The notes below the pieces were generated by a model. The model did not search any database and was not told the DNA's origin. It was given only the letters and a program-made list of their open reading frames with translations. Both the position numbers and the translations under genes were made by a program. From a virus, in the IMG/VR virus record IMGVR_UViG_3300001567_000262, positions 69,336 to 133,335 of that record: a stretch of 64,000 nucleotides of DNA, one strand, 5' to 3'. Each line of letters starts with the position of its first letter. Position 1 is the first letter of the stretch. Shown here piece by piece: positions 26,443-46,505 of this stretch.

Positions 26443-28947
26443 TTATATTTCCAGATTCAACTCGTTTTCACTGTCATTTTTATTGCTTTCACAAATGCTG
26501 TATCCGATTGCGCCGTATCCATGCAACCGCTTCTCATGCATTCTGGCAAGAGTCGGCACCTTCAGGTCGGCATAATCATATATTTGCACTTCTCCCTTAT
26601 TGTGATGCTGCCTGTGCAGGCGCCCCGCGTATTGCGCCAGCGTTCCACGCCATGAAATCGGCATGGCAAGAAAGAGCGTATCAAGGCGGGCGTCGTCGAA
26701 ACCCTCACCCAAATACCCGCCAGTCGCTACAAGTATCCTCGGCTCGGAATCTGGAATATTTGCCATTTTCTCCATGATTTCACGCCTCTGTTTTGTACCC
26801 ATACCTCCTTTGAGAACAATCACATTGCCGTAAACCTCACGAAGCCGTTCCGCGAAAAAGTCCAAATGTTTCTTCCGCTCGGTCAGAAGAACAGGTGACC
26901 TATCTGACTTAACCGCCGCGAGAACATCATCAAGTATCATTTCGTTGCGGTCTTTATTCTCTACAATTGCGGCATAGATGGCATGTATCGGAGGGTCTTT
27001 TCCCTCATCCGTGATTGTCTCCATTTTGAAATCTGTCTTTCGCACAATCACTTTGTGGTCAAATGGTCGTAGCTCCGCCTGCTTTTTCGCATCAACGCTG
27101 TGCAGAATTGGCCCGCATTGCATGAATATGATTGGATGATGTCCATCCTTCCGAATTGCGGTGGCTGACAGGCCGGTAACAAAACGCGCCTTGCATTGCC
27201 GAGCCACTCTTTCAAAACTGACCGCCGATATATGATGACATTCATCCACAATCAGATAACCGTATTGTCCGACAATATCGTCCACCACATCTTTTCTCAC
27301 CAAGCTCTGGATAAGAGCAACATCTATGAACCCGGTCGGTCGTCGCTTGCCTGCACCGATCTGTCCGATCTTTTTCGAATCGAGATTGAGAAAACTGCCA
27401 AGACGTTCAATCCACTGGTCCATTAATTGCCTTCGGTGGACAAGCACTAAAGTATTCACGCCGCGCTTTGCGATCATGTAAGTTGCGACGACTGTTTTTC
27501 CAAAAGCTGTTGTGGCCGCAAGCACACCTGCATCTTGTCCGAGCATCTTTTTTGCCGCTATTTTCTGTTCTTCGCTGAGTTGTCCATTAAACCGCAAATG
27601 AATCTTTTCTCCGGCGACCCGTTCGTCAATTATTTCGTGGCGGATTCCGAGAGAATCAAGCAGCTCGATTATTTCCACGAGGCAGCCCCGAGGCAATCCT
27701 ATGTGCCCAGAAAATTCCTCGGCACAGCTTATGATGCGGGGCTTGCCGAATGTTGACAGCCGCATGGCTTGTGCGCTGTAAAATTCCGGATTCTGAAAAG
27801 CGGCCAGCCGCACAAGGCGATTGATCAGAGCGGGAGGAAGTCCGTCACGACCAATATAAATCTGATTTCCAAGCACTATCCGAATACTATTTGGTAAGGG
27901 AGCTTTCAGACGAAGCTCCTGCGAGCGGCGTGAAGGGGGCGCCGTCCACGGTTGATCGTCATATTCATCTGTAATAACCATCCGCACACCAAGAATCCGA
28001 CCGCGCCGCTGTCCTTCATCCACTATCGTTTCGACTTCTTCCCGGCGCATTCGCCTCAATGACGATAAAAAAGCCCACTGATCCGCATAGGGAATAAATG
28101 TCTTGTCAATGAAAACACTATTGCCTTGCTCGCGTGGTTTCTTTTGAAGAGGCAATGCTATGAGATTGCCGAAGCCGCCCTGCGGCATCGTATCCTGGTT
28201 GGGAAAAAACCGGTCATAAGAATCAAGTCCGATTTCCGGGCGGCGTTCCATGGTCTCTGTCAGAAAAAACGACCCCAACTTACGGGCCAGAATTGCTGGA
28301 ATCGCCTCAGAAAAGAATATCCATACATGGCCGCCTTTACCTGACCGCGAACGTTCCAGCGCTGCAGGCACGTTATATGTCTCACATGTTTCCCCAAATG
28401 CCGACACATCTTCCCGCCAAGTGGCTTTGTCGAAATCGGCGGCAAGGAACCAACATGCTTCGTTCTCTAAAAGCGGATAAACCCCGATTGTGAAATCGCG
28501 CCGTGCGCCTTGGAACGGTTTCTCATCCGGGTTCTCTCCCAAGAGATGGTTGCGTATCACTTCTCCGGTCACCGGAAGAAGCTCTCGATGCAGGCAATCG
28601 CCGCACTTGGTTTTTCGTTTATCGCATTTCCCTCGCGCCCATTCGTTGGCGCATGCAGGCTGATAACCAGATTGTCCGGTTTTCAGGTTTTCCCATCTGC
28701 GCGGATATACATTTGCTCTGCCTCGAAAAAGCCCCATGAAAAGATCAAGCTTTTCCTTGGGAGAGGAATCTTGCCTTACCGGTGCGGCAGGAAATTCGTG
28801 ATTGGATGAAGCGCCAACCAACGACTCTCTTTCACGATGGAGTTTCTTTATGCGCAGTAAAATGTCGGCGCGTTCGGCATCCAGTTCCTTCAGGCGATGC
28901 TCCGCTTCATTTATGAGTTGGTCAATTTTAGTTGGGTTGCCGCTCAT
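26443..28947 (-). CDS. AEP primase-like (TOTE-associated type) domain fused to SF2 DEAD/DEAH helicase
   Basis: LFRGRANVY, FLAADFDK, ERSRSGKGGHVW, YDRFFPNQD..PQGGFGNLIALPLQ (AEP); AATTAFGKT, IVDECHH, GLSAT, GEGFDDARLD (SF2). Confidence 0.85.
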   Translation of the reverse strand: MSGNPTKIDQLINEAEHRLKELDAERADILLRIKKLHRERESLVGASSNHEFPAAPVRQDSSPKEKLDLFMGLFRGRANVYPRRWENLKTGQSGYQPACANEWARGKCDKRKTKCGDCLHRELLPVTGEVIRNHLLGENPDEKPFQGARRDFTIGVYPLLENEACWFLAADFDKATWREDVSAFGETCETYNVPAALERSRSGKGGHVWIFFSEAIPAILARKLGSFFLTETMERRPEIGLDSYDRFFPNQDTMPQGGFGNLIALPLQKKPREQGNSVFIDKTFIPYADQWAFLSSLRRMRREEVETIVDEGQRRGRILGVRMVITDEYDDQPWTAPPSRRSQELRLKAPLPNSIRIVLGNQIYIGRDGLPPALINRLVRLAAFQNPEFYSAQAMRLSTFGKPRIISCAEEFSGHIGLPRGCLVEIIELLDSLGIRHEIIDERVAGEKIHLRFNGQLSEEQKIAAKKMLGQDAGVLAATTAFGKTVVATYMIAKRGVNTLVLVHRRQLMDQWIERLGSFLNLDSKKIGQIGAGKRRPTGFIDVALIQSLVRKDVVDDIVGQYGYLIVDECHHISAVSFERVARQCKARFVTGLSATAIRKDGHHPIIFMQCGPILHSVDAKKQAELRPFDHKVIVRKTDFKMETITDEGKDPPIHAIYAAIVENKDRNEMILDDVLAAVKSDRSPVLLTERKKHLDFFAERLREVYGNVIVLKGGMGTKQRREIMEKMANIPDSEPRILVATGGYLGEGFDDARLDTLFLAMPISWRGTLAQYAGRLHRQHHNKGEVQIYDYADLKVPTLARMHEKRLHGYGAIGYSICESNKNDSENELNLEI

Positions 28948-28989
28948 TTTATGCCCAATTATTTCAGTATATTGTCTATATCGGGTTTT

Positions 28990-30081
28990 TCATCCCTCCG
29001 GAAAACCGCCGATAAACTGCCGGTATTCCGCCGATAAACCGTAGCGCCTTGCTTTGTTGGATGAATCCGCGACGATCAGCCATCCTTCCACCACCCACCG
29101 AGACAAAAGATCTCTGGTCTGCCTATCGCTTAAACCAAGGGAGCTGGCCACTTGGCGCGTTGCAACAGTTGTGCTCTCGGAAAAAAGGCCAAGAACAATT
29201 CGGGCTCTGCGATCAAGATTTCTTAAAAGTGGAGCGTCTATCGGCTTTTCCTTTGCCTTTGCCATGACTTCAGCTGAAACACGCTGAAACACCTCGGCCA
29301 TCGAGTGTGCGAAATATTCCAGCCAGGATGTAATATCTGCCTTGTCGCGTCCGTCGTAATAATTGTGTTTTGGATGTGTTTGCAGCGCCCTGTAATAACC
29401 ATCAAGATCATCGGCATAGAATTCTTCAAGACTGAAGTATTTTCCGAGATCGTACCCGCCTCGATAAAGAATCCATGTCGCAAGCATCCTGGCCGTGCGC
29501 CCGTTGCCGTCATAAAAGGGATGTATTGTTACGAACTGATAATGCAAAACTCCGGCGATAACAGGAACGGGAATCTCTTCTTTTTCGGATTTTGCCAGCC
29601 ATTTGAACAATTCCTTCATCAGGGGTGCCACGTCTTTCGCTTCCGGGGGAAGATATACAATCGCACCGGTGGCGGCATCTCGAATAACGTTCTGATCCTT
29701 TCGATATATTGTCGCCTTGGCTCTGGGGCCTTTGTGGATAATGGCGTGAAGTATTCTGACGCGCTCTTCCGTTATTTCAATTCCGGTTTCCGCCCATTCT
29801 TCCACCTTCTGAAGCGAGTTGTAATAATTTTTCACTTCAACAACGTCCCGTTCTTTTCCTTTTAACTTCTTTTCTCCCTCCAATACTTCCTTTGCTTCTT
29901 TAAGCGTTAGTCGATTTCCCTCAATTCGCGTTGAATAATGAGTGGATCGAACGCGCGCCCGCTTACGCAGTGATTCAGAAGTCGAAGGATGCAAGACCGC
30001 GACGCCGACAGCTTTCCGCGCAGCTTCAATCGTCATTAAATCCCGTACTATCTTGTTCGTGAATTTGTATTTATAAGACAT
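28990..30081 (-). CDS. Fic family protein with internal inhibitory helix and C-terminal HTH
   Basis: STHYSTRIEGN, HPFYDGNGRTAR; C-terminal VASSLGLSDRQTRDLL HTH; likely start ATG 30081 with GAGGGG SD. Confidence 0.9.
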   Translation of the reverse strand: MSYKYKFTNKIVRDLMTIEAARKAVGVAVLHPSTSESLRKRARVRSTHYSTRIEGNRLTLKEAKEVLEGEKKLKGKERDVVEVKNYYNSLQKVEEWAETGIEITEERVRILHAIIHKGPRAKATIYRKDQNVIRDAATGAIVYLPPEAKDVAPLMKELFKWLAKSEKEEIPVPVIAGVLHYQFVTIHPFYDGNGRTARMLATWILYRGGYDLGKYFSLEEFYADDLDGYYRALQTHPKHNYYDGRDKADITSWLEYFAHSMAEVFQRVSAEVMAKAKEKPIDAPLLRNLDRRARIVLGLFSESTTVATRQVASSLGLSDRQTRDLLSRWVVEGWLIVADSSNKARRYGLSAEYRQFIGGFPEG

Positions 30082-30143
30082 CAGCAGCCCCCTCAAAACC
30101 TGACGTTCTTATTATACAACAGAAAAAGCAGTTTGTGAACAGA

Positions 30144-31039: not shown

Positions 31040-31948
31040 TCAGATGGTTTCCAACGCCTGTTGCAAAGCTTCAGACGGCACATGGGCGTAGATGGTCGTC
31101 GTTGAGATGTGCCGGTGTCCGAGACCCTGCTGCACCAGAGCGAGGTTCCCGGTCCGCTCGAGCAGACTGGTGGCGAACGTGTGGCGCAGACCGTGGACGG
31201 AGATGTTCTTCTCGATCCCCGCGTCGGCAAGCCACTCATCGAACGAGCGTTGCACCTGCCGGACAGACAGGCGTCGTCCCTGATTGCTTACGAACAGCGC
31301 GCGGGTTTCAACCGGCATTTTCCGGCGCTGTTTCAGATACACATCGAGATTTCTCCGGCTTTGGGCGTTCAGAAAACGAATCCCCTTGTGTCCTCCCTTG
31401 GCAAAGACAGTGATTTTCTTCTCCGCAAGATTCACGTCATCGACGCTGAGATGGACAAGTTCGGAGACACGGATGCCGGTGTTGAGAAAGAGGCTCACAA
31501 TGGCAAAGTCACGGAAGGCTTTCTTCCCCCTCGTATTCGAGATGGCCTTGAGGAGCCTCTTTTTCTCGACATCGGTAAGCACGTCCGGCGCGGGTCGTTC
31601 CACGTGCCGGATGCGTATGGAGGCTGTGGGATTGGACGGGATGTGGCCGGACGCGGCGAGCCAGTTAAAGAAGGACTTCAACGAGGTCTTCACCTTGTTT
31701 ACGGAGCCTTCGCTTTTAAGGCCGCCGTCCGCCATGCGGGTCACCGATGGGGACACGAGGAACTCGTTCAATATATCCGCTGTAACTCCGGAGACCACCG
31801 GGCATTGGAGACGGTCCGCAAGGAACCGCTCCAATTGCCCGAGGTCACGGAGGTACGATGCGACCGTATGCGGTGAACGCCCGTCAGCCCGCAGTTTCGT
31901 CTCGAAGAGTTCAATCGCCCTGCGGGGCGTCAGCGGCGTTTCCGGCAT
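31040..31948 (-). CDS. Tyrosine recombinase (XerC/XerD-like integrase)
   Basis: SAM-like N-domain; TGIRVSEL (R), KGG (K), HGLRHTFAT (HxxR), LGHRHISTTTIY (H,Y). Confidence 0.92.
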   Translation of the reverse strand: MPETPLTPRRAIELFETKLRADGRSPHTVASYLRDLGQLERFLADRLQCPVVSGVTADILNEFLVSPSVTRMADGGLKSEGSVNKVKTSLKSFFNWLAASGHIPSNPTASIRIRHVERPAPDVLTDVEKKRLLKAISNTRGKKAFRDFAIVSLFLNTGIRVSELVHLSVDDVNLAEKKITVFAKGGHKGIRFLNAQSRRNLDVYLKQRRKMPVETRALFVSNQGRRLSVRQVQRSFDEWLADAGIEKNISVHGLRHTFATSLLERTGNLALVQQGLGHRHISTTTIYAHVPSEALQQALETI

Positions 31949-32530: not shown

Positions 32531-34111
32531 GTGGACTTTTTCCCGCGGCGGGGTTGCCCGATTCCAGGAGACAGTTTGAACAACATCGAAATGCCAAAAG
32601 ACCATCGCGCCATCGGACGCATTCTGCGCAACCCGCGGCTCTGGGGAGAACACTACCTCAAGGACCGCGACGGCGGCGCGCGCCGCTATTGGGCGCATCA
32701 GAATGAAGACTTGGAATGCCCGGCGACAAACATCATCCATCTCGACGGGCGCGATTCCGGGAAGACGGTCGACATCGCCACGCTTGCTCTCCATCACGCG
32801 TTCGTAAAGCAAGGCGGCTCCGTTCTGGTTGCCGCGCCGCATCAGGGCCCGGTGGAAACCATCGTCGAGGAAGTCGAGTTCCAGATCGAGAACAACTCCG
32901 ACTTGCAGTCGAGCATCGCGGTCAATGCGCAGGGACGCCCGAAGATCACCCGGAAGCCTTATTTCAAAATCGAGTTCACGACCGGCGCGGTGATTTACTT
33001 CCGACCGGCTGGCGCTTACGGCGATCCGTTCCGGTCATTGCACGTCGATCTGGTTCTTGTCGACGAGGGCGCCTGGCTCACTGAGAAAGCATGGAAGGCG
33101 CTGAGGCAATGCCTGAAGGCAGGCGGTCGGATGCGGATTTATTCGACGCCGAACGGTCTGCGCGACACGACCTATTACCGGCTCACGCATTCAAAGAAGT
33201 GGAAAGTTTTCAGATGGCCGTCATGGCTGAATCCGAACTGGACGCCCGAGCGCGAGGATGAACTCGTCGAGTTCTACGGCGGCAGGGACACGGCGGGATG
33301 GCAGCACGAGGTCGTGGGCGAACATGGCCGTCCCAGCTACGGCGCGTTCAATCTCGAACATCTCACCATCTGCCGACAGAACATTCCGGAGTATGAGTGC
33401 GTCGAGATCACCGGCGAGGAACTGAAAGATTGCGAGAACGAGGAAGCGGTCGCCGAACGGCTGGACATGCTTCTCAACCTCGCGCCTGCGGAAGGGCTGT
33501 TCTATGTCGGGGGCGATTTGGGGTATACCAACGACCCGACGGAAATCGTCATCTTCAGAGAGGTGTCGGAAAATGAAAAACCTGTTCTTCGTCTTGTGCG
33601 CCGCATTCACATGGAGCATGTGGCCTATCCTCATATTGCCCTTGCAATCGCTTTGATAGACAGATATTTCAATGCCGCCGGGATTGGCGTGGATGCGGGC
33701 GGCAACGGACTCTCCGTGGTTCAGGAATTGACCGCGCTGGATAAATATAAGGAACAGAATCTCGCGCCGCGGCTTCGCGGATACAACTTCGGAAGCTCCG
33801 TGGTCATCGGCGAGAACGACGGGCAGGAAATCAAAAAGAGATGCAAGGAATACATGACGGCCCTGATCAACAAGGGATTCCAGGCGCGTCAGATCATACT
33901 TCCCGATTCGGATGTCGAGATCGAAAGCCAGTTCACCACACACACGTATTCAATGAAAACGGGGAACGTCATTTATTCGAAAGGTAATGATCACATAATC
34001 GACGCCGTGCGATGCGCCGTGATCGTTCGGGAACAGGAACGGCTGGACGGGATAGGCGGCGTCCTGGGCGACCTGCCTCTGCCCGTCATGACCAATCCGA
34101 TATTCATTTAA
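32531..34111 (+). CDS. terL: Phage terminase large subunit
   Basis: HLDGRDSGKT Walker A, LVLVDEG Walker B, YSTPNG, GGDLGYTND and NDHIIDAVR RNase H-fold nuclease motifs; start may be ATG 32590. Confidence 0.88.
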   Translation: MDFFPRRGCPIPGDSLNNIEMPKDHRAIGRILRNPRLWGEHYLKDRDGGARRYWAHQNEDLECPATNIIHLDGRDSGKTVDIATLALHHAFVKQGGSVLVAAPHQGPVETIVEEVEFQIENNSDLQSSIAVNAQGRPKITRKPYFKIEFTTGAVIYFRPAGAYGDPFRSLHVDLVLVDEGAWLTEKAWKALRQCLKAGGRMRIYSTPNGLRDTTYYRLTHSKKWKVFRWPSWLNPNWTPEREDELVEFYGGRDTAGWQHEVVGEHGRPSYGAFNLEHLTICRQNIPEYECVEITGEELKDCENEEAVAERLDMLLNLAPAEGLFYVGGDLGYTNDPTEIVIFREVSENEKPVLRLVRRIHMEHVAYPHIALAIALIDRYFNAAGIGVDAGGNGLSVVQELTALDKYKEQNLAPRLRGYNFGSSVVIGENDGQEIKKRCKEYMTALINKGFQARQIILPDSDVEIESQFTTHTYSMKTGNVIYSKGNDHIIDAVRCAVIVREQERLDGIGGVLGDLPLPVMTNPIFI

Positions 34112-34124
34112 AAGGAAGCACGGA

Positions 34125-34484
34125 ATGACCGATCAGGAACTCATAAAAGAAAAAATGGAGAGCGTCACGGACCTGCTGTTACGGAAAAACCGCGACTATG
34201 GCAGCAGCTTCCGAAAGCCCGGCATTCTCTCCGGAGCTCTCGACGCGAAATCAAAACTGCTCGTCCGCATCGACGACAAACTCGAGAGGTTAGGAAACCT
34301 GCTCGACAAAGGAACGGACGGAGACGTGCCGAATGAAAGCATGTCCGACACCGTGACCGATCTCATCGGCTATTTCGTTCTCGTCGGAATTCTGCTCGAT
34401 GAACAGAGACAGGCCGGACGCCCCATGAGCGTTGCCGAAGCGCAGGGGCGACAGGACAACACGCAAACCGGAGCAACCGAGTGA
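34125..34484 (+). CDS. DUF1599 / nucleotide-modification-associated domain 1 (Nmad1)-like protein
   Basis: LLRKNRDYGSSF...LLVRIDDKLERL..L...ESMSDTVTDLIGY signature. Confidence 0.8.
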   Translation: MTDQELIKEKMESVTDLLLRKNRDYGSSFRKPGILSGALDAKSKLLVRIDDKLERLGNLLDKGTDGDVPNESMSDTVTDLIGYFVLVGILLDEQRQAGRPMSVAEAQGRQDNTQTGATE

Positions 34485-36019
34485 AAAAAAACAACGGGAA
34501 CAACAACCGGCATCGAAGCGGCAACAATACCACGGGTCTGACCATGATCGGCTCGAATATGGGAACAGCCGCCGAACTGAACTCCTCCGCGTTCAGTGCT
34601 CAGTCCGTGAGCGACGCCATCCCGAAAACGTTTGAGGAGCGCGCGGCCAAGGCATGGCAGTTCTACACCGAGGAGCCCATCGTCCAGAACGCGATCAACT
34701 CATGGCGCACGTTCGCCATCGGAGATGAAATCCAGTTCAACTGCGACGACGAGGACGTGAAATGGGAAGCCCGCGAGTTCGCCGCCCGCGTGCAGTTGAA
34801 CAAACTCATCAAGGACAGCGTCCTCCAATGCCTCGTTAAGGGCGAGACCGTCTGTTTCAAACGCCCCACAAAAGACGGCAAGGACATCGAGGAAGTGGTC
34901 TGCGTAAATCCGATCAGCGTGAAGGTGAAATACGAGAACGGCAAACTCGTCGAAGCGAAGCAGACGCCTGAAACCGGAAGCGGCGAGCCGATTGATCTGC
35001 CGCTCGAGCAGACCCTGCACATCAAGTGGAACGCGCCGTCCTATTCTCCCCGGGGCAATTCGATGGTTGTTACGGCGTTCGAGTCAATCGAACTGCTGAG
35101 GGACTACCGCAGTGCCGAGCGCGCCGTCGCCAAGCGATGGACGACTCCGCTCCGGTTCATACAGGTTGGCGGGCAGTTCGGACAGAAGACCATCGTACCC
35201 GATCAGCGGAGTCTGAATAGTGTTCGGGACATGCTTAACCGGATGGATATGAAGGCGGGACTCGTCGTTCCGTTCTATGTGAAGGCAGAGACTTACGGTA
35301 CCGAGGGACAGGTGCTGGATACCGAAAAGAAAATCAAGGAAATAAAGGAAGACATCATCATCGCGCTCGGGCTGGCAAAATCTCTGATCACCGGCGACGG
35401 CCCTAACTTCGCAACCGCGTCCATCGGCATGCAGAAGATGATCGTCATGCTGAAAGAAATCAAACAGGTCGCACGCGACATCCTGAACTGGATTTTCGCG
35501 GACTGGCAGAAGCTCAAAGGATACGAGGAAAAAAACATCAATTACATCTTCAACGATCTCGATCTGACGAACGAGGTGGACTTGAAAAAGCTGTACATCG
35601 AACTCTTCGACCGCAAACTCATCTCGAAGAACAGCCTTCAGATCAAGATGGACCTGAATCCGGAAGTGGAAGATTCACAAACACAGGCCGAGTCAAAGAA
35701 ACCGTATGATCTTTCGGACAATAAAACGGCGGAAACGGTTATGAAGTTCTTGGAATCCGGTGTCATTTCAATTGGAAAGGCGCAGGAATTGTTCGGCTTC
35801 GATAAAGAAAAAGACCGCCCGGCTACCGCCGACTGGAATTACAGGCCGCCCATGGTTACCGGCGCGGTGGAGTTCGACACGATCTGTGACGAGTGTGAGT
35901 TTTTCGACGATGAAAATAACTGGTGCGACGCGAACAACCGGGACACCCGGTTCGATTCCCGCGCCTGCACCTCGTTCGAAAGAAAACGCGCAAAGGAAGG
36001 ATGCGGATGCAAGCAGTAG
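34481..36019 (+). CDS. Phage portal protein
   Basis: 512 aa after terL; CLVKGET, VCVNPISV, NFATASI, helical stem; Cys-rich C-terminal tail. Confidence 0.75.
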   Translation: MKKNNGNNNRHRSGNNTTGLTMIGSNMGTAAELNSSAFSAQSVSDAIPKTFEERAAKAWQFYTEEPIVQNAINSWRTFAIGDEIQFNCDDEDVKWEAREFAARVQLNKLIKDSVLQCLVKGETVCFKRPTKDGKDIEEVVCVNPISVKVKYENGKLVEAKQTPETGSGEPIDLPLEQTLHIKWNAPSYSPRGNSMVVTAFESIELLRDYRSAERAVAKRWTTPLRFIQVGGQFGQKTIVPDQRSLNSVRDMLNRMDMKAGLVVPFYVKAETYGTEGQVLDTEKKIKEIKEDIIIALGLAKSLITGDGPNFATASIGMQKMIVMLKEIKQVARDILNWIFADWQKLKGYEEKNINYIFNDLDLTNEVDLKKLYIELFDRKLISKNSLQIKMDLNPEVEDSQTQAESKKPYDLSDNKTAETVMKFLESGVISIGKAQELFGFDKEKDRPATADWNYRPPMVTGAVEFDTICDECEFFDDENNWCDANNRDTRFDSRACTSFERKRAKEGCGCKQ

Positions 36020-39000
36020 CTGTTGAAAAAACACTGCGCGACCGGATTGTCGAGGCGACGCTCGTGTCTTTGCACGAACGCGACCTCTATTCCGAACAGA
36101 CGGTGTCCCGCGTCCTGGATTCGCTTCAACGCTCCGAAAAGGACGTTAAGGCGAGCCTTCTTTATTACGCAAACCTCGGTTCACTTCCCGAGGGCAAAGC
36201 AATAAATCAGGTGTCGCTCCGGAAACTCCAACAGCAGATCAGGGAACACATCCGCACCGTCCGCGATGAACATTCACTCATCATGAAGACCGCCGTCAAG
36301 GAGAGTTACAGGTCGGGCATTCACAGCGGCATCGGCGATCTCGTCCGGGCACAGATGCCGTTTTACCGCGACCTCACGCCGGATGGCATAAAACAATGCG
36401 GCAGCAACATCTTCACGCTCATCGACAAAGACGCGCTGGACTTCATGGCGAACTACAACGTGCAGCTCGCCGGGGACGTGTCCCGCGAATTGACTGACGG
36501 GATCAACCGCGCGATCCAGACAGGCATCGCCTCCGGCCGCAGTGTCCCGGAAATCGCGAAAGACATCGGGCGCGTGGTCAAAGACCCAGAAGAATTCAGA
36601 AAAGCAGGAAAGACCGTTTTCAAGACGGCGCAGTACCGGATGGAAATGATCGCCCGAACGGAAACTCTACGGGCGCACAATCAGGGCCGCATGAAGTTTT
36701 ACAACACGGTCGGCGTGACGAAAGTCGAATGGATGGCTGTCGGTGACGAGCGTGAATGCCCCGTGTGCCGGGAACTGGACGGGAAAATATTCCCGATAGA
36801 CAAAGTGCCGAATATTCCCGCTCATCCACATTGCCGGTGCCAGATTCTGAACGCCTATCCATCCGACATCTGCGGCGCTAAACATCTCGGCGCAACCGCC
36901 GCGCCCGCGGAAGCCGCCTGCATCCTGTCGCCGCAGACCATCGAGGATATGGCGAAGGAAAAACAGTCCGAGGCAATCAAGATCGGGCAGTACATGTCAA
37001 AAGGCGAATGGGAGAAACTCACAATCAAGCAGCTTCAGGATCAGGCCAAGGCGAACGGCATCTCCATCGCCCGAACCAAGGCCGACTTCCTCGATATTCT
37101 CAAACAGAAAACCGGAACCGATTTCTCGCACCTGTCCGGCAAAGACCTGCAGGCGCTCATAAAAGAAAACAAAATCGCCGCCCTGCGAAACAAAGACGAC
37201 CTGATCAATCTGTTGAAGGCGAAAGCAAAACAGGAACAAGCGCCGGATTTCGCTTCCATGCCGGTGTCGAAATTGAAGGAACTCGCGCAGGAAAAAGGAA
37301 TCTCCCTCAACCTTACCAAACAGGAAGTCATCGACATCCTCGATGTGCTGGAACCCGGCGTGGACCACAGCGGTCTGTCCGGGCAGGCGCTCATCGAGGC
37401 GAAAACGAAATTCAATCTCCCGATCCTCAAAACCAAGGAACACCTCGTCAAGGCGCTGGAGAAAAACTTTAAAGAGGAAATCGGAAAGAAGGTCACGAAG
37501 GAAGCCGTCGTTCAGGTCGCAGAGGAAACAATCAAAAAGGAAAAGGACCAGATCGTCTCCCTGCTGGACGCCGTGAAGGTGTCCGCCGACCCGAAGGATT
37601 ACCAGTCGGTTCTCTCCGCGATCAAGGACGCAGAATCATACCTCGGTAAAGGCGGGTTCTCCGTCGACGACGCTTACCTGAAAGAGAAAGCGTCTGAAAT
37701 CGTAAAAAAGAAAGCAGAGTTCAAGGCAAAGATTCAGGCGATGAATTCGAAGGAATTGAAAGACCTCGCCAAGCAGAGCAAGATCACGCACTGGCAATGG
37801 GGATCGAAAGACGATTTCATCGCGCTTTTCACCGAGACGGACGACGCGGCAATTCAGGCCGCGAAGGACGGCATCGAAACCAAGTGGGCGAAGTGGGCCG
37901 AGAAATATGGAAAGAAGCCCGCCGCTGGAGTCCAGGCGCCGCCGCCCAAAGCGCCGCCGAAACACACGCCGCAACCGGCCCCGGAGCCGGTCGCGCCGAC
38001 AGTCCTTCAAAAACCGCACGCGGACCTGTCCTCCGGTTTCGCAAAAGTCGATTCCGACTGGGACACGCTGGACAAGGCAAAGGCTTTCAAATATTCGAAG
38101 GACGCGAAATCGCTCGGCGGCGCGCACGAGAAATATACCTATATTGACGAACACGGTGACGAGTGGCTTTTCAAACCAACGGATAAATTCATCGCGCACG
38201 GCGAAGAGATGGGCTACCGAATCGCCCGGCTTATTGATCCCGATGCCGTCGAGGTGCGTTTCATCGAAATTGACGGGCGCTCCGGCTCCATCCAGCGACT
38301 GGTTAAGAACGTCAAATCAGAGGCGTCGTTCCGGGACATCCCCATCGGCAAGCTGTCTCCTTCAGAGATCGAGGCCGTCCAGCGCGAACATATTCTCGAC
38401 TGGCTCATCTCGAACCACGACGCGCACGCCAAGCAATTTGTCCGCGCCGCGGACGACAAAGTTTATGGAATCGACAAAGGCCAGACGTTCAAGTTTCTCG
38501 GCAAGGATAAACTCGGCATTTCTTACCATCCGAATTCGATGGAGGCCGAGCCGATCTACAACACGCTGTTCCGGGCATATCAGAACGGCGAGATCGACAT
38601 TGACCTGCAGGCGGCGCTCAAAACCATCCAGCGCATCGAGAAAATTCCGGACTCTGAATATACAGAAATCATCCGGCCCTACATCGAGGGACGTTTCGGG
38701 GCAAAGGCAAGCGCCGCGAAAGACGAGTTCTACCGGCTGGCGCTGGAGCGCAAAAACAACATCCGCCGTGACTTCGAGAAGTTTTATAACGACCTGCACA
38801 AGGCGCGCTTCAAAGCCGAGTTCCGGTTCCAGGACGACGTTAAAACGATGCGGAAGCTGTCCGGGGAAGACGAGACGATTCTGCGCGACGCGCAGGCGAT
38901 GAAGGGTCAGGGAAAAGCCATGCGCCTCGACGTTGACGACATCGAGGATCAGAACGCGCTCGTTTTCACACAAAAAAACATGCAGGGCAAAGAAGAAACG

Positions 39001-40557
39001 GTTATCCAATTCAAACTGCGCCCCGATTCGGAAAAGAAACTGCTCGACGCGCTCGGTGAAAAAGGCAGCGCCATGAAAGGCCTCGCCACCGGAGACACGC
39101 TGCCCGAAGACACCTTCTACGACAAAATCCTGTCCGGCGCGAAAACCGTTAACCACCACGTGGACAGCGGCGATTTTAAATATAACGCGGACACGCTGGA
39201 TGAAATAAGGAAGATCATACCTGACCTTGAGAAGCTGGCGAAGTCGGGAAAAACGGCGTCCATCCGTGACATGGCCGAGGAATACAGAAAGGCATGCGAA
39301 GCCGTTCTGGATGCCGCAAAAAACAATACAAAGTTCCCCGGCAAGATCGAGCAGTACACCGCGAAAAAACATCTCATCGCACAAGAGGCGAAGCCGGAAC
39401 CGAAAAAAGCAGGCTTCCGCTTCCAGAAAACAAATATCAAACTGGACCAGCACCAGTGCCGCAACGGTGAAATCCACGTCGTCAAATCCGATGCGGATTT
39501 GAATGTGATCTTCGGACGGAGTTCTGGGTTCAGCCGGGGTGTGCAGTACCGGATCGAACTCGACGACGGCGTGGTCATGGACTACCGCCCATGGGACTCA
39601 TCCAATCCTTATGCCGTTCAGGGACAGGTGGAAATCCGCGTCACCGGCAAAGTCGCGGCCCCGGAACGGTTTGAGGCCATCCTCGACCGGCTCGATCAAC
39701 TCGGAATCAACTCCGTGCCCGCGAGCGCCGAGGACGCCGAGATCATGTACCTTCAGAAACAGGCATATCTTCTGAAGAAAGACACGTCCGCCGCGTGGAA
39801 AAAGATGGGACAGAAGATGGACTCATCGAACGCGACCAAGGCCGAGCGTATCCAGGCGATGCGGAAGTTCTGGTCGGATGAACTCGGCGTGGACGATGTG
39901 ACGAAAATACCCGGTTACGATCCGGTCGGAAATTATGAACTCGGATTCAGTGACCCTTCCCGGCGCGCGGGATACCGGCACCAGATGCGTTTTGATCTTA
40001 CGGACGAGATGCTGGATCGGGAACTGAAGGGATACGGGCTATATCACAACGTCACGGACAGCGGGAATGTCGAAGACCTCGTGAAGACGGTGCTCGATAA
40101 CAACGGCAACATGGTCTCGACCGTCGAGAAAATCCGCATCGGCGTGAAGCCGGGCGGCATGTCCCCGGTAAGCGACATGGGAACGGGCGGCGCGTCGTAC
40201 TTCTTCACCCGCGTTCGCAAGTTGCCTGTATCCGGTCGGGGAAGCACGGGCCTCTATTTCAAAAAGCGGCTCCTTCGCCGGATGGACGCTATCACTTACG
40301 ACCACGACGCGTTCGGCAAGGTTGTTGACGATTACGTTCGCCGCAAGCGTCTGGCGGGCATCGAGGATTACAAGCGGCTCGCTTCCGGAGGCCGCAGCGA
40401 CGAGACGATTTTCAAATACACTGTGTCGCTCGTGGATGAAATCGACGTCATCAAAACAAGCGGCGCGGCGCAACGCGCAAAGGTCATCGAACTGTTCAAG
40501 AAGAAAGGCTTCTCAAAACTGCCGGATGGCCGGAAGATAGAGGAAGTGGTGCTCTGA
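36007..40557 (+). CDS. MuF/SPP1-gp7-like minor head protein with HeH/SAP-like repeats, kinase-like domain and putative ADP-ribosyltransferase-like C-terminal domain
   Basis: RMEMIARTETLRAHNQG...VEWMAVGDERECPVCRELDG..F...PAHPHCRC (MuF); LGGAHEK, WLFKP, DWLISNHDAH..QF, GIDKG (kinase); SD GGAAGG before ATG 36007. Confidence 0.85.
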   Translation: MQAVAVEKTLRDRIVEATLVSLHERDLYSEQTVSRVLDSLQRSEKDVKASLLYYANLGSLPEGKAINQVSLRKLQQQIREHIRTVRDEHSLIMKTAVKESYRSGIHSGIGDLVRAQMPFYRDLTPDGIKQCGSNIFTLIDKDALDFMANYNVQLAGDVSRELTDGINRAIQTGIASGRSVPEIAKDIGRVVKDPEEFRKAGKTVFKTAQYRMEMIARTETLRAHNQGRMKFYNTVGVTKVEWMAVGDERECPVCRELDGKIFPIDKVPNIPAHPHCRCQILNAYPSDICGAKHLGATAAPAEAACILSPQTIEDMAKEKQSEAIKIGQYMSKGEWEKLTIKQLQDQAKANGISIARTKADFLDILKQKTGTDFSHLSGKDLQALIKENKIAALRNKDDLINLLKAKAKQEQAPDFASMPVSKLKELAQEKGISLNLTKQEVIDILDVLEPGVDHSGLSGQALIEAKTKFNLPILKTKEHLVKALEKNFKEEIGKKVTKEAVVQVAEETIKKEKDQIVSLLDAVKVSADPKDYQSVLSAIKDAESYLGKGGFSVDDAYLKEKASEIVKKKAEFKAKIQAMNSKELKDLAKQSKITHWQWGSKDDFIALFTETDDAAIQAAKDGIETKWAKWAEKYGKKPAAGVQAPPPKAPPKHTPQPAPEPVAPTVLQKPHADLSSGFAKVDSDWDTLDKAKAFKYSKDAKSLGGAHEKYTYIDEHGDEWLFKPTDKFIAHGEEMGYRIARLIDPDAVEVRFIEIDGRSGSIQRLVKNVKSEASFRDIPIGKLSPSEIEAVQREHILDWLISNHDAHAKQFVRAADDKVYGIDKGQTFKFLGKDKLGISYHPNSMEAEPIYNTLFRAYQNGEIDIDLQAALKTIQRIEKIPDSEYTEIIRPYIEGRFGAKASAAKDEFYRLALERKNNIRRDFEKFYNDLHKARFKAEFRFQDDVKTMRKLSGEDETILRDAQAMKGQGKAMRLDVDDIEDQNALVFTQKNMQGKEETVIQFKLRPDSEKKLLDALGEKGSAMKGLATGDTLPEDTFYDKILSGAKTVNHHVDSGDFKYNADTLDEIRKIIPDLEKLAKSGKTASIRDMAEEYRKACEAVLDAAKNNTKFPGKIEQYTAKKHLIAQEAKPEPKKAGFRFQKTNIKLDQHQCRNGEIHVVKSDADLNVIFGRSSGFSRGVQYRIELDDGVVMDYRPWDSSNPYAVQGQVEIRVTGKVAAPERFEAILDRLDQLGINSVPASAEDAEIMYLQKQAYLLKKDTSAAWKKMGQKMDSSNATKAERIQAMRKFWSDELGVDDVTKIPGYDPVGNYELGFSDPSRRAGYRHQMRFDLTDEMLDRELKGYGLYHNVTDSGNVEDLVKTVLDNNGNMVSTVEKIRIGVKPGGMSPVSDMGTGGASYFFTRVRKLPVSGRGSTGLYFKKRLLRRMDAITYDHDAFGKVVDDYVRRKRLAGIEDYKRLASGGRSDETIFKYTVSLVDEIDVIKTSGAAQRAKVIELFKKKGFSKLPDGRKIEEVVL

Positions 40558-41533: not shown

Positions 41534-41635
41534 CAGTCCGGAAGTATTGAAAGCCGAGCCCGGTAAGTAAGTCCGGAAGCGTCGGCCCAAGCCCGGTAAC
41601 AAGCGAGAGATCGCATGTTGCCGGGCTTTTTATTT
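41534..41635 (+). promoter_or_regulatory. Structured repeated cis-element copy 1, ending in a terminator-like hairpin
   Basis: CAGTCCGGxAGTATTGA...CGAGCCCGGTAA...AAGCCCGGTAA(41589-99)...TTGCCGGGCTT(41618-28)TTTATTT; second copy at 52313. Confidence 0.7.
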
Positions 41636-41652
41636 TCCCGCGAGGTGTACGA

Positions 41653-44600
41653 ATGGAAATCGAATTCAAAACAGACCTTGAGAGAATCAGCTTCCTTCTC
41701 GAAGCAGACGCCGAACTGCGTCTCGGACTTCTCGCCGCCGAGGGCAAGCTGGAACTCGTCACCGAGGAACTGCCCGCTGATGAGCGCCCGAAGTATATCA
41801 CCAACTTCATCGGCTCGAAGCAGAAACTCGTCGACTGGATATGGAGCAACACTCCCGAAGACGCGGAATCCGTCCTCGACGCGTTTTCCGGCTCGTCCGT
41901 CGTCGGCTACATGTACAAAACCAAGGGGCTGCAGGTCTTTTCCAACGACCGGCTGTCCTACTGCTATCATGCCGCCCGCGCCATAGTCGAGAACAACAAC
42001 ACCCGCCTTTCTGAAAAGGACATCGAGGGGCTTCTCAAAGATCACAACTCCGACGCCGGGACATTCATCCAGAAAAACTTTCACGGCATTTTCTTCAAGA
42101 ATGACGTCCTCGCGCTCCTGGACGTGCTTCGCGCCAACATCGACGCGTTGTCCGGCACCCAAAAAAGCATGGCGCTTTTCGCGCTGGGCAAGACGTGCAT
42201 GTCCGGCGGCGGGTTCGGGCATTTCTCGTCCAGCACAAAAGGCGGACAGCGGCACTACACCGTCGAGAGTTTTATTGAGCATTACCGGGACAACCTGCTC
42301 CGCATCAACGCGCTCGTTTTCGACAACGGCAAGGAGAACAAAGCGTTCAACGGCGACATCCTCGACACCGCCCCGAAAGTCAAAGCCGATCTTGTCTATT
42401 TCGATCCCCCGTATGCCACGCAGTTCAGTTCCACGAACTACGAGAAGTATTACCACTTCGTGGAAGGCTTGATGGATTACTGGAAGGACAAGGAAATAGA
42501 CCACACAAAAAAAATCCGCAATTACAAAATCGAAGACCCCGGCGTAACACCCGTGACCGCGAAACAGTTCTTCACGGATTTCCTCGCCGCGTCGAAACAC
42601 ATCCCGAACTGGCTTATCTCCTACCGCGACAACGCATATCCGACCGAGTCCGAGATCAAGGGGATCGTCGCCGACCTCGGCAAAGAGTCCCGCATGAAAT
42701 CGAAAGATCACAAATATCAGCTCGCGGGCAACAACCGCGGGGGCGAGCCCTCGAACGCGAAAGAGCGGCTCTTTGTGTGCGCCGATGAAAGTGAAGACGC
42801 CGCGCAACTGTCCGCCGCCGCCAACATGGAGGACATCGCCGACCTGTCTCTCGACGCCGACTTTGATCCCGATCTTCTGAGCGCCATCGCGGGCAAGACG
42901 GACAACGTACTCGTGACCGGATATATCGGGAACAAACACTTCGTAATGAACTGGATAGACAAGAACTTCCCGAAGGACGCCAAGTCTCTTTTTGATGCTT
43001 TTTCCGGCGGCGCTAACGTCGCCTACTTCTACAAGCGCAAGGGGCTGCGGGTAACGACCAACGACATCATGTCCTACCCGTACCACATCGCCCGCGCCGT
43101 CATCGAGAACAACAACGAGACCCTCTCCGACGAGGAATTCGCCGCTCTGCTAGAGAAAAACCCCGACGCCGGAACTTTCATAACCGATACCTTCTACGGC
43201 TATTACTACACGAAGCCGATCCTCCAGCTTCTCGACAACGTCTGGGCAAACGCCCAGAAACTGAAGGGATACAAAAAAGACATCGCGCTCGCCGCGCTCG
43301 GACACACCTGCAAGGCAAAGGCCGTGTTCGGGATGTTCAACCGCAGCAAGATGAACCGGACGCGGAAGATCAACGATCTTGACGAGGGCTATCACTCTTC
43401 GAGCATCGGCAACATCCCGCTTTCGGAATTTGTCTCGTCCTTCAAAAAATACGTTCGTCAAATCAACGGTCTCATCTATGACAACGGGCAGGAGAACAAG
43501 GCGCACAACGGGGACATTCTGAAAATCCTGCCGGAAGTGAAAGCCGACGTCATTTACTGCGACCCGCCTTATATCACTGAATTTGGCAGCAACGATTACG
43601 AGACCTACTACCACTTCGTGGAAGGTCTCATGACGTGCTGGAAGGACAAGGAACTTTTCGACTCTCCCCGACGCAACTTCGCGTCACGCACCAAGTACAA
43701 CAAGGAGAGCATTGCTGAACTGATCGGCAATGTCGTAACAGCGGCGGCAAAGAGGTTTCCGCACATTCTCATCAGTTACCGGGACAAGGCGTTCCCGAAC
43801 GAGAAGGAACTCAAGGGCATGGTCGCAGAGTCCTTCGGCGACGTCAGAGTGAAACGCATCGCCACGGAATACGGCCTCGTCAGACGCGAATCCAACGCGG
43901 GCGGCAAATATACGAACGAGCTTCTGTTCATCGGGAAAAAGACCGCCTCAGGCGCTGTCGCTGGCGCGGCCAAGGCCGAGCGCGAAGATGACGACATCCT
44001 CGAGGCTGTTGCCGCTTCCGTCCCGAACGGAAACCACACGACCGTCATCGGCGACATCCGGCTCTCCGAAGTGAACCTGCTCGCAGCCGAAGGAATCAGC
44101 CTGTCCGACAACAACGTCCAGGGCGACAAGGAATTCAGTTTCATCCTCACGCACGCGGGTCCGAACAAGAACGGCGATTTCTTCACGGTAGAGGAACTCT
44201 CCGCACGTCATCAAACAGCGATCAATAAAAAGATTGACCTCAAGCACTCGCAGGACTTCACGGACATCGTGGGCGGCGTCACAGCGAGTGACTTCGTGCA
44301 GGAGCCGGACAAAGCGTGGGTGGAATGCGTCGGGGAACTCTACATCAACGACAACATCAATTCGCGCCTCGCTTACAAGCTGATCAAGAAAGGCATCATC
44401 ACGCAGGTCTCGATGGAGTGCGATTACGAGGAAGGCGAATGCTCGATCTGCGGCAAGCGCGTGCGCAGCAAGGCGGACTACTGTCTGCATCTGAAGAAAT
44501 TCAAGGGAGGTGAGTTCAAAGGACAGCCGGTTTACGAAATTCTCCACGGCATCACTTTCACCGGTCTGGGACTTCTGGACCGCAAGGGCGCCGACGAGAA

Positions 44601-45222
44601 CGCAAAAATAAAGCAGGTTGCGGAAAAACATACCAATGAAGGAGGTAACGACAGAATGGACGGAGAAAACAAGAATCCCGAAACCGATGAAACCGAGGCG
44701 GCGAAGAAAAACGCGCCCGGTGGCGGCGGTGGCAATGACGCCCGCGTCAAGGAACTCGAGAAGGAGAACAAAGACCTGAAGGATCAGCTCGATCTGCTCC
44801 AGAAGGAACTGGACAAGATCAACGCGGAACAGGCGGCTGCCGCGCGCCGGACCCGCGCCGAAAAACTTGTCCTCGAGATGGAGAACCGGGGCGTCGATTT
44901 CGCGGACGAGGAAGACCGCGAAAGTGAGAGGAAACGGATCGCCGGGCTCGGCGATGATGCGTTCGAAGCGACCGAAGCCGCGGTCAAGCGCGTCAAGAAG
45001 AAAGACCCGAAAGCCGATCCGAACGCCGACATGAAACCGGAAGACAAGGAGAAGGACAAGAAGCTCCCGGCCAACAAAGGCAAGGCGGACTGCGGCTGCG
45101 GCATGAGCGCGGACGCGAGCGTGAGGCCCGCCGATGTGCAGGACGGAAAAGTGCCTCTCGAAGACCAACTGAAAGACGGCTTCATGGCGGCGTACAACGA
45201 GCGCGTCGGCGCTGCCAACTGA
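41653..45222 (+). CDS. Polyprotein: two tandem D12-class N6-adenine DNA methyltransferases + prohead protease + scaffold
   Basis: MTase 1: NFIGSKQKL, VLDAFSG, VYFDPPY; MTase 2: GYIGNKH, LFDAFSG, IYCDPPY; protease-like: FILTHAG.NKNGDFF...IDLKH...VSMEC....CSICG...YC.HL...FTGLGLL...GAD..A.I; acidic/basic coiled-coil tail; located directly before decoration and capsid genes. Confidence 0.85.
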   Translation: MEIEFKTDLERISFLLEADAELRLGLLAAEGKLELVTEELPADERPKYITNFIGSKQKLVDWIWSNTPEDAESVLDAFSGSSVVGYMYKTKGLQVFSNDRLSYCYHAARAIVENNNTRLSEKDIEGLLKDHNSDAGTFIQKNFHGIFFKNDVLALLDVLRANIDALSGTQKSMALFALGKTCMSGGGFGHFSSSTKGGQRHYTVESFIEHYRDNLLRINALVFDNGKENKAFNGDILDTAPKVKADLVYFDPPYATQFSSTNYEKYYHFVEGLMDYWKDKEIDHTKKIRNYKIEDPGVTPVTAKQFFTDFLAASKHIPNWLISYRDNAYPTESEIKGIVADLGKESRMKSKDHKYQLAGNNRGGEPSNAKERLFVCADESEDAAQLSAAANMEDIADLSLDADFDPDLLSAIAGKTDNVLVTGYIGNKHFVMNWIDKNFPKDAKSLFDAFSGGANVAYFYKRKGLRVTTNDIMSYPYHIARAVIENNNETLSDEEFAALLEKNPDAGTFITDTFYGYYYTKPILQLLDNVWANAQKLKGYKKDIALAALGHTCKAKAVFGMFNRSKMNRTRKINDLDEGYHSSSIGNIPLSEFVSSFKKYVRQINGLIYDNGQENKAHNGDILKILPEVKADVIYCDPPYITEFGSNDYETYYHFVEGLMTCWKDKELFDSPRRNFASRTKYNKESIAELIGNVVTAAAKRFPHILISYRDKAFPNEKELKGMVAESFGDVRVKRIATEYGLVRRESNAGGKYTNELLFIGKKTASGAVAGAAKAEREDDDILEAVAASVPNGNHTTVIGDIRLSEVNLLAAEGISLSDNNVQGDKEFSFILTHAGPNKNGDFFTVEELSARHQTAINKKIDLKHSQDFTDIVGGVTASDFVQEPDKAWVECVGELYINDNINSRLAYKLIKKGIITQVSMECDYEEGECSICGKRVRSKADYCLHLKKFKGGEFKGQPVYEILHGITFTGLGLLDRKGADENAKIKQVAEKHTNEGGNDRMDGENKNPETDETEAAKKNAPGGGGGNDARVKELEKENKDLKDQLDLLQKELDKINAEQAAAARRTRAEKLVLEMENRGVDFADEEDRESERKRIAGLGDDAFEATEAAVKRVKKKDPKADPNADMKPEDKEKDKKLPANKGKADCGCGMSADASVRPADVQDGKVPLEDQLKDGFMAAYNERVGAAN

Positions 45223-45254: not shown

Positions 45255-45614
45255 ATGGCATATCTCAATGCAAACCATCCCGGCCTCGCCTACGGCGACG
45301 GATACATCCAGGGCGCGGGCGGCATGGGGCAGTTCGTGAAGGCGGTCGGCAACGACACCTTCGCGGTGAACACCGATCCGGCGGTCCCGTCCGCGGGCGT
45401 CCTGATGAAGGACTACGTCGACGGCGAAATGCCCACATTCTGGTGCAACGGCGGCGTGTACGAGACCGACGTGTTCAGCGGCACGATCAACCCGAACGAG
45501 CTTCTGAAGATCGACGGAACCGGCAAACTCGTCGGCGGCGGCACGAGCGCCAACGCGGTCGCCCAGGCGATCAGCGTGGCCGGCGGACTTCTGAAATTCA
45601 AACTGCTCGTTTAA
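45255..45614 (+). CDS. Head decoration/cement protein
   Basis: 119 aa, Gly-rich beta protein between scaffold and capsid genes; GGAGGT SD. Confidence 0.6.
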   Translation: MAYLNANHPGLAYGDGYIQGAGGMGQFVKAVGNDTFAVNTDPAVPSAGVLMKDYVDGEMPTFWCNGGVYETDVFSGTINPNELLKIDGTGKLVGGGTSANAVAQAISVAGGLLKFKLLV

Positions 45615-45641: not shown

Positions 45642-46505
45642 ATGGAAACGAAAAAGGTCAACACGAACTCGCAGGAGTTCATGGAAGCGATGGGCAAGCT
45701 GATGCGCGAGGCGCTGGAATCGCCCGAGGGCATGAGGGCGCTCGCGGCCGCCATCGCCGCGCCCATCGCGGCTGACATCGCACGCAAGGAAATCACCTCG
45801 CTTCTGCTCACGAAGCACAACCTGCCCAAAGGCGAGCGCGCCGTCTATCAGAAGAAACCGGCTCTGAAGGCGTACTGGATTTCGAAGGAAGGCGAAGCGC
45901 GGGAGCAGGAAATCGGCAAGGACGAGATCGAAATCCCGACGCACCGCGTCCACAGCGCCCCGATGGTCGACATTTCAATCCTCAAGCATGGCAACATCGG
46001 CACGCTCACGGACATCCAGACGGCGTCCTCGGATGAAATCCGCAAGGAGATCGACAAGCGCACGATCACGGTCATCTCCACCGCCGTGCCCGCCGAGAAC
46101 GTTGTCACTATCTCCGGCGGTGTTCTGACCGAGGACAGCCTCAACGACGCCATCAGCATCCTCGAAGACAAGGAACTGACCGTGAAGTACATCGTGCTTC
46201 GCGGGAAACGCTTCAATGAGATGCGGGCGTGGGATCTCGACCCGGTCACCCAGCTCGAACTGCGCCAGAAAGGCATCATCAAGGTGTACGGCGGCGCGAA
46301 CGTGCTGCTTACCTCGGCGGCGGACGTGAATGAAATCCTTCTCATCCCCGACGAGGAAATCGGCAAGATGCCCATCCGCGAGCCGCTCACGGCGGAAGCC
46401 ATCGACAAGAAACTCAAATTCAAAACCGGCTGGCTCATCTGGAGCGAACTCGGCATGGGCGTCACCCGCCCGGACATCGTCTCCAAGGTCGTCATACAGC
46501 CGTAA
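45642..46505 (+). CDS. Major capsid protein (HK97 fold)
   Basis: 287 aa after protease/decoration genes; EIRKEIDKRTITVI (backbone helix), KTGWLIWSELGMGVTRPD C-terminal strand; AGGAGG SD. Confidence 0.75.
   Translation: METKKVNTNSQEFMEAMGKLMREALESPEGMRALAAAIAAPIAADIARKEITSLLLTKHNLPKGERAVYQKKPALKAYWISKEGEAREQEIGKDEIEIPTHRVHSAPMVDISILKHGNIGTLTDIQTASSDEIRKEIDKRTITVISTAVPAENVVTISGGVLTEDSLNDAISILEDKELTVKYIVLRGKRFNEMRAWDLDPVTQLELRQKGIIKVYGGANVLLTSAADVNEILLIPDEEIGKMPIREPLTAEAIDKKLKFKTGWLIWSELGMGVTRPDIVSKVVIQP

Follow-up and report, generated by a model that had tools for sequence, protein, structure and literature searches.

Phages evade restriction by methylating their own DNA in the cytoplasm and, rarely, by means of packaged proteins such as DarB of phage P1. 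Nested genes encoding a prohead protease and a scaffold are known from phage Mu (I/Z) and from herpesviruses (UL26/UL26.5). The C/Nu3 gene of phage lambda is another such nested protease/scaffold gene, as listed in PMC8508860 (Shaw and Murialdo 1980). As to packaged enzymes, one survey (PMC5512222) describes DarB as a head-packaged DNA adenine methyltransferase (MTase) that guards injected DNA in cis, an MTase-SF2 helicase protein loaded via DarA and Hdf, and sets beside it the 'polyvalent proteins' (Iyer et al. 2017), in which enzymatic effectors are joined to MuF or portal domains and for which autoprocessing by peptidase domains was proposed. Here we analyse a gene at 41653-45222 (+) of the window, by which we mean the whole 64,000-nucleotide stretch of the IMG/VR provirus record IMGVR_UViG_3300001567_000262 that was studied. 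This fusion gene combines a nested protease/scaffold gene with what would be a packaged anti-restriction enzyme, each of a kind already known. Our analysis suggests that it is the nested capsid maturation protease/scaffold gene of a temperate tailed phage and that it takes two MTases into the procapsid, a reading to which we assign a probability of about 0.6.

Like lambda C/Nu3, Mu I/Z and UL26/UL26.5, the gene is predicted to give a long protease and a short scaffold in one frame with a shared procapsid-targeting C-terminus, and it too is situated between portal and capsid genes. It differs from them in having two DNA MTases in an N-terminal extension of some 820 residues. Moreover, whereas lambda gpC is ClpP/S49-like, the protease here is a member of a divergent, zinc-bearing clade near gp19 of phage G. 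The main parts of the open reading frame (ORF) are listed below, dN/dS being the ratio of nonsynonymous to synonymous substitution rates.

41653..45222, plus strand: whole ORF of 1189 amino acids (aa), with leader, MTase 1, MTase 2, prohead protease and scaffold
41785..42777, plus strand: MTase 1 (D1 lineage), aa 45-375, assigned by Pfam PF02086, invariant residues, a dN/dS of 0.053 and its place in the D1 clade
41878-41895, plus strand: motif I of MTase 1, DAFSGS (aa 76)
42403-42414, plus strand: DPPY of MTase 1 (aa 251)
42901..43947, plus strand: MTase 2 (D2 lineage), aa 417-765, assigned by PF02086, paralogy to MTase 1, a dN/dS of 0.087 and its place in the D2 clade
42994-43011, plus strand: motif I of MTase 2, DAFSGG (aa 448)
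43561-43572, plus strand: DPPY of MTase 2 (aa 637)
44125..44637, plus strand: prohead serine protease domain, aa 825-995, assigned by fold model, structure matches and invariant residues
44245-44247, plus strand: His865
44410-44412, plus strand: Ser920
44440-44490, plus strand: zinc insert with three Cys and one His (CCCH)

Could the fusion be an artefact of assembly, or of a frameshift, that joins separate genes? The ORF runs without interruption for 3570 nt, with a GAGGTG ribosome-binding site 5 nt ahead of its ATG at 41653, and contigs from a separate run of the same sample span every domain junction. The passage from linker 1 to MTase 2 is bridged at 42439-43620 and that from MTase 2 to the protease at 43596-44130, both with 0 differences, while that from the protease to the scaffold is bridged at 44315-44782 with five. 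In relatives from other samples, insertions and deletions in the ORF sum to multiples of three. A second copy of the fusion gene, likewise of 1189 aa and 91% identical, sits in another prophage of the same record, and the same ORF is present in complete genomes. The artefact explanation is refuted as far as sequence data allow, and we attach next to no weight to it. An earlier note on this DNA had reported one uninterrupted 1189-aa ORF of MTase-MTase-prohead protease-scaffold architecture in the protease slot before the decoration and capsid genes. The ORF and its place, between the portal and major capsid genes, are confirmed, the architecture is supported, and the domain coordinates proposed at that time prove correct to within a few codons. 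Metatranscriptome run X19 was considered as a sign of expression and rejected: its short contigs, at 85-95% identity, come from relatives.

We turn to the protease domain (aa ~825-995), which AlphaFold (AF2) models with a predicted local distance difference test (pLDDT) score of 88 when given a 46-sequence alignment and of 35 from the single sequence. Foldseek against the PDB ranks T4 gp21 (5jbl) first and herpesvirus assemblins next. VIA-align gives Z 11.1 for T4 gp21 5jbl (root-mean-square deviation, rmsd, 3.2; 128 residues aligned) and Z 11.0 for the varicella-zoster virus protease 1vzv (rmsd 2.8; 116 aligned), the best unrelated fold reaching only Z 6.6. In BFVD the matches include numerous proteins named 'prohead protease', along with phage G gp19 (template modelling score, TM, 0.75). 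Among homologues H865 and S920 are invariant or nearly so, and the zinc-insert residues C930, C933, C944 and H946 (CxxC...CxH) are invariant. Several relatives are assigned (1e-14 to 1e-21) to the 'head maturation protease' families phrog_18299, phrog_8158 and phrog_7015, and one relative reaches Pfam Peptidase_S78 with 21.9 bits against a cut-off of 21. On this model the C-terminal domain has the gp21/assemblin fold and is a serine protease of capsid maturation, which bears out the earlier description of a prohead-protease-like domain with a zinc ribbon. It shares with T4 gp21, SPN3US gp245 and the herpesvirus assemblins the fold (Z 11) and the conserved His and Ser; unlike them it has the CCCH zinc insert, is fused to its own cargo and scaffold, and gives no direct S77 or S78 match. 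Searches of the PDB by sequence and profile with the protease domain returned only a C2H2-like zinc-finger similarity, at the CCCH insert, and Pfam likewise picked out nothing there but this zinc-finger-like insert. Elsewhere in the 133-kb record no Pfam S78 or S77 match was found, so that the protease domain of the fusion is the only candidate maturation protease found there.

An exhaustive HMMER search with aa 790-995 yielded 1101 relatives of the protease, some of them standing alone (230-450 aa), others forming the N-terminus of proteins of up to ~2400 aa or following one or two D12 MTases. As a side observation, five long repeat proteins of 1000-5100 aa (P0173, P0177, P0222, P0229, P0244) match residues ~85-140 of the protease domain 6-15 times each; these matches may stem from a beta-hairpin motif that is repeated or be an artefact of composition.

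The last part of the ORF contains a second start, as follows.

44639-44646, plus strand: internal ribosome-binding site AAGGAGGT, followed by a 9-nt spacer and ATG 44656-44658, which is Met1002
44656..45222, plus strand: nested co-terminal scaffold ORF of 188 aa, with a coiled coil at ~44734-44877 and a conserved tail at 45103-45210

The site AAGGAGGT holds the only AGGAGG of the 3570-nt ORF, 9 nt before ATG 44656. Looking for a Shine-Dalgarno (SD) core 4-18 nt ahead of an aligned ATG, with the in-frame ATGs of the same ORFs as controls, we found core and ATG together in 56/61 distinct related loci, as against 47/778 (6%) of the other in-frame ATGs. The column of Met1002 holds M, V or L in 120 homologues, with G-G before it. 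The SD falls in differing codon phases, GAA-GGA-GGT (E-G-G), AAA-GGA-GAT (K-G-D) or AAG-GAG-GAC (K-E-D), which argues for selection on nucleotides rather than on amino acids. A search of the ORF 5' of the protease domain revealed no further internal start with a good SD. The scaffold product has a coiled coil, with weak matches to coiled-coil families, and a strongly conserved tail (aa 1151-1186) ending in a G-F-M-A-A-Y motif. As judged from these signals, the ORF is a nested gene of the lambda C/Nu3 type, in which the start at Met1002 gives a separate, predicted scaffold. The nested start implies that the last 188 residues would be the scaffold and capsid-targeting module, and that the MTase-bearing long form would be a minor species in the procapsid. 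The scaffold-like coiled coil had been recognized before and stands, while the conserved internal SD and ATG at Met1002 had been overlooked.

Both MTase domains are complete and active-looking, and are predicted to be N6-adenine MTases. Pfam PF02086 (D12 N6-adenine MTase) matches two stretches of the ORF with 149.7 bits against a cut-off of 22, and the two domains are paralogous, with 42% identity (E 1e-92). Each keeps motif I, the N-D pair after strand 2 and DPPY; both pairs of motif I and DPPY are retained in essentially all of 120 full-length homologues, and the invariant residues of MTase 1 are D76, F78, G80, D99 and D251-P-P-Y254. These results uphold the earlier claim of two intact, paralogous DNA adenine MTases with DAFSG and DPPY. 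Identity as Dam orthologues was considered and dropped, the score for TIGR00571 being below its cut-off and no PDB sequence match being found.

Selection on the parts of the protein was gauged as dN/dS between the record's two 91%-identical copies. The ratio is 0.053 for MTase 1, 0.087 for MTase 2, 0.074 for the protease, 0.26 for the scaffold and ~0.2 for the linkers; differences between the copies gather in the linkers, not in the MTase cores. All three enzymatic domains are under purifying selection. This bears on the idea that the MTase domains are structural, that is, internal DNA-binding or DNA-condensing proteins or scaffold bulk whose catalysis is irrelevant. Many large phages do pack non-enzymatic internal proteins (PMC10052503), but neither domain shows any variation in motif I, the N-D ribose-binding pair or DPPY among 30 to 120 homologues, and an MTase dN/dS of 0.05-0.09 is as low as that of the protease. 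We regard a purely structural role as very improbable.

The domains are joined by a leader and two linkers, each of which contains a candidate processing site.

41653..41784, plus strand: N-terminal leader, aa 1-44, with conserved F14-L-L-E-x-D-A (from column conservation in 120 homologues; dN/dS 0.06)
41731-41745, plus strand: candidate processing site 1, LAAEG, aa 27-31, a conserved motif in the leader
42778..42900, plus strand: linker 1, aa 376-416, with conserved D-L-L-S-x-x-A-G
42877-42894, plus strand: candidate processing site 2, LSAIAG, aa 409-414, with family consensus L-S-C-Q-A-G
43948..44124, plus strand: linker 2, aa 766-824, disordered in the model, with conserved H-T-x-(I/V)
44080-44094, plus strand: candidate processing site 3, LAAEG, aa 810-814, a conserved motif in linker 2

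The three short motifs, of consensus L-x-A-(Q/E)-(A/G), each lie 10-20 residues ahead of a domain within otherwise variable or disordered stretches, and are probably cleavage sites of the protease. Proteases of the gp21/assemblin fold cut after Glu. SPN3US gp245 cleaves after A-x-E, releasing packaged ejection proteins (PMC10052503), and LAAEG here contains A-A-E. Some relatives have optional modules in the linkers, of ~100 aa between the MTases in linker 1 (P0035, P0011, P0018) and of ~95 aa ahead of the protease in linker 2 (P0004, P0011), with no Pfam family for either. The linker-1 module also immediately precedes the protease in P0130, a shorter relative in which Pfam finds no MTase. The region upstream of the protease thus behaves, to judge by these arrangements, as a modular string of cargo.

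How could such a gene bring MTases into a capsid? Translation from ATG 41653 would give the 1189-aa polyprotein of leader, MTase 1, MTase 2, serine protease and scaffold, while translation from the strong internal site, at ATG 44656, would give an abundant 188-aa scaffold with the same C-terminus. With the coiled coil and the conserved tail at the C-terminus common to both products, the long form is expected to join free scaffold and capsid protein in the procapsid, in the way that lambda gpC joins gpNu3, and to carry both MTases in with it. The protease (His865/Ser920) would then be activated and would cut the L-x-A-(Q/E)-(A/G) motifs ahead of the domains, freeing two MTases of ~40 kDa within the shell. 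These could methylate the genome during packaging or leave with it on ejection, and by either route the incoming DNA would be protected from restriction-type defences of the next host. We consider loading of the MTases into the capsid the most economical reading and infer it strongly, at the probability given above. A further and more tentative step, which we hold at somewhat under even odds, is that the procapsid is at once the chamber in which DNA is methylated and a vehicle for delivery, every head receiving two MTases by way of a few long-form copies. These would modify each genome during its entry into the head, or be ejected with it to act ahead of host restriction. If true, this would help to explain the head modules with 91-98% identity that are found in genomes of different phyla (see below).

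Several points weigh against capsid loading and the identifications behind it. The case for loading comes solely from the covalent link to a capsid-targeted module. Folded MTases of ~40 kDa are too big for capsid pores and would occupy space needed for DNA, and methylation in the capsid would require entry of S-adenosylmethionine. The proposed cleavage motifs are just short conserved motifs in disordered linkers, and that of linker 1 here (LSAIAG) has no Q/E. Even at E up to 10, the window's protease domain is not matched directly by Pfam S78 or S77. The MTases score 48.7 bits for the Dam subfamily (NCBIfam TIGR00571), under the cut-off of 114.85, and have no sequence match to solved structures in the PDB, whether with the MTase part or with the full-length profile.

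An alternative is that the gene encodes a late-expressed polyprotein that is not packaged, the MTases being cut off in the cytoplasm, ahead of assembly or independently of it, and methylating replicating or concatemeric phage DNA there. The fusion would then merely tie MTase synthesis to head-gene expression, and the enzymes would act like ordinary orphan MTases of phages. The short conserved motifs exactly at the domain boundaries fit such a scheme, methylation in the cytoplasm requires neither cofactor transport nor ejection, and most known Dam-like MTases of phages are soluble cytoplasmic enzymes. However, adjacent genes suffice for co-expression, whereas the domains have stayed covalently joined across more than 120 clusters and more than 15 phyla, always with the MTases N-terminal to the protease and the capsid-targeting scaffold C-terminal. 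Moreover, prohead proteases of such fold are generally active only after assembly. We therefore think purely cytoplasmic action unlikely and prefer loading into the procapsid.

Do the two MTases act together or separately? M.FokI is known for tandem D12 MTases in one polypeptide, and the earlier note had drawn on this analogy. Here, too, two D12 domains lie in one chain, and NCBI auto-annotation calls an 89%-identical protein 'Modification methylase FokI'; on this analogy the domains would be obligately paired, each methylating one strand of one asymmetric site. A tree of 141 MTase domains, however, splits deeply, with 100% support, into a D2 clade comprising all second domains and a D1 clade comprising all first domains together with 34 domains of single-MTase relatives. 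In these 34 relatives the D1 type stands alone, directly next to the protease; a few 'single' rows within the D2 clade look like ORFs truncated at contig ends. From the split of the clades and the D1 type of the single-MTase relatives, the ancestral unit would therefore be D1-protease-scaffold, with D2 a second enzyme added later. Such an ancestry argues for two independent specificities and not for an obligate FokI-like pair, and each MTase domain probably works on its own. In contrast to M.FokI, moreover, the head module has no cognate endonuclease as restriction partner, the domains occur separately in relatives, and they are fused to capsid proteins. The M.FokI analogy is thus weakened, and obligate pairing seems to us doubtful; it bears solely on specificity and does not conflict with loading of the MTases into the capsid.

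How widespread is the fusion? Our search for homologues covered 5.8 billion proteins. The architecture proves common: the same-length fusion forms more than 120 protein clusters (46-96% identity), and the gene order is kept in 95 related loci. It occurs in hundreds of prophages of more than 15 bacterial phyla, among them Thermodesulfobacteriota, Acidobacteriota, Planctomycetota, Chloroflexota, Nitrospirota, Kiritimatiellota, Pseudomonadota, Spirochaetota, Zixibacteria and Calditrichota, mostly in anaerobic organisms of sediment, groundwater and digesters. Complete genomes with the fusion include Desulfosarcina and Syntrophus, and one Bryobacterales chromosome has five copies of the gene. Four contigs of the metagenome-assembled genome (MAG) ADurb.Bin236 carry the nearest relatives, at 79-95% identity. 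The DNA of the window itself was found in a hydrocarbon metagenome, and partial relatives in groundwater, freshwater and sediment runs.

A tblastn search of 50,697 phage records gave no full-length relative; its matches were confined to an MTase of an Erysipelothrix phage, a fragment of a gut phage without annotation, and phage G gp19. On this evidence isolated phages seem to be without the fusion, although records close to the window may be missing from the set searched. Gp19 of Bacillus phage G is the nearest protease of an isolated phage (29.5% identity, TM 0.75) and likewise lies between portal and capsid genes, but at 300 aa it is too short for an MTase domain. A separate observation concerns relatives ~52% identical to the window protein, whose 7-10 kb head modules show 91-98% nucleotide identity across genomes assigned to different phyla (L079 against L117, L126, L086, L091 and L077), for example between the complete Syntrophus buswellii genome and MAGs of Nitrospiraceae, Treponemataceae, Phycisphaerae, Anaerolinea and Zixibacteria. 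Either these are mis-binned phage contigs or the host range is unusually broad.

Full-text searches of the literature turned up no paper in which an MTase is joined to a prohead protease or scaffold. In the available text of the polyvalent-protein survey a maturation protease/scaffold was not found as an anchor, the word 'scaffold' being absent and 'prohead' occurring once (PMC5512222). The earlier impression that the architecture was undescribed holds for the literature searched; the design is already a PHROG family: phrog_27806 ('DNA methyltransferase', 798 positions) covers aa 420-1186 with 1150 bits and contains the single-MTase form, its label omitting the protease and scaffold parts. In comparison with DarB, the MTases here are of the D12 class and the anchor is the maturation protease/scaffold itself; no helicase domain was found in the fusion ORF among Pfam and PHROG profile matches. 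DarB-type proteins join the MTase to an SF2 helicase and LPD36. The fusion protein is not, on its domains, a DarB-type member, but by analogy it may work like DarB.

If our reading is true, it would mean a new route for loading cargo into virions and a new anti-restriction strategy, in which the anchor of the packaged enzyme is the maturation protease/scaffold, an arrangement that would be genetically compact, self-releasing and apparently very successful. It would also provide a model from nature for the loading of HK97-fold capsids with enzymes. The idea is open to direct testing, since lysogens are in culture (Desulfosarcina alkanivorans, D. widdelii, Syntrophus buswellii and Desulfatitalea alkaliphila). 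Whatever the outcome, the labels 'DNA adenine methylase', 'Modification methylase FokI' and that of phrog_27806 mask the protease and scaffold functions and need correcting.

Finally, we consider the surroundings of the gene. The record has 133,335 bases, the window being its right-hand part, and consists of two related prophages in the same orientation with ~87% nucleotide identity, the second of which begins near window position 30304. The upstream prophage (record 11495-63469) has its own 1189-aa fusion gene and, in comparison with the window prophage, ~8 kb and ~10 kb of extra DNA. The gene order of the window prophage is integrase, terminase, portal, MuF protein, two small ORFs, fusion gene, cement-like protein, capsid protein and tail genes, with the following positions.

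31040-31948, minus strand: integrase
32531-34111, plus strand: large terminase
34481-36019, plus strand: portal, in the same head module, upstream of the fusion gene
35923-40557, plus strand: MuF/SPP1 gp7-domain protein of 1544 aa, upstream of the fusion gene
45255..45614, plus strand: DUF2190/Phage_cement_2-like protein of 119 aa, by feature similarity only
45642..46505, plus strand: HK97-fold major capsid protein of 287 aa without delta domain (NCBIfam NF042927, E 7e-75; phrog_2522)

The 119-aa protein is a probable head decoration or cement protein. The succession of fusion gene, ~120-aa gene and 287-aa capsid protein is the order that recurs in the 95 related loci, the same capsid protein following the fusion in every case, and the complete genome of Desulfosarcina alkanivorans has the same gene order.

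The MuF protein has its MuF/SPP1 gp7 domain at aa ~193-308, followed by more than 1200 further residues, and matches phrog_6577, with weak matches to HipA_C and Rho_N; it looks like a 'polyvalent' head-packaged effector. In the Desulfosarcina relative the MuF protein has just 528 aa. At 41589-41638 (+) a strong hairpin (13 + 4 bp) is followed by UUUUUAUUUU, ~15 nt 5' of the fusion ATG, with z = -4.0 against shuffled sequences. It looks like an intrinsic terminator or an antitermination target before the head-assembly genes. Rfam gave no match for the hairpin or elsewhere upstream of the fusion gene, and a scan for promoter and terminator consensus sequences gave fewer matches than in shuffled sequence. 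Just beyond the integrase end of the prophage, 26443-30096 (-) encodes a TOTE conflict-system primase-helicase (PF22548, 322 bits) and a Fic/DOC protein, and this region possibly represents a defence island of the host or the terminal part of the neighbouring element.

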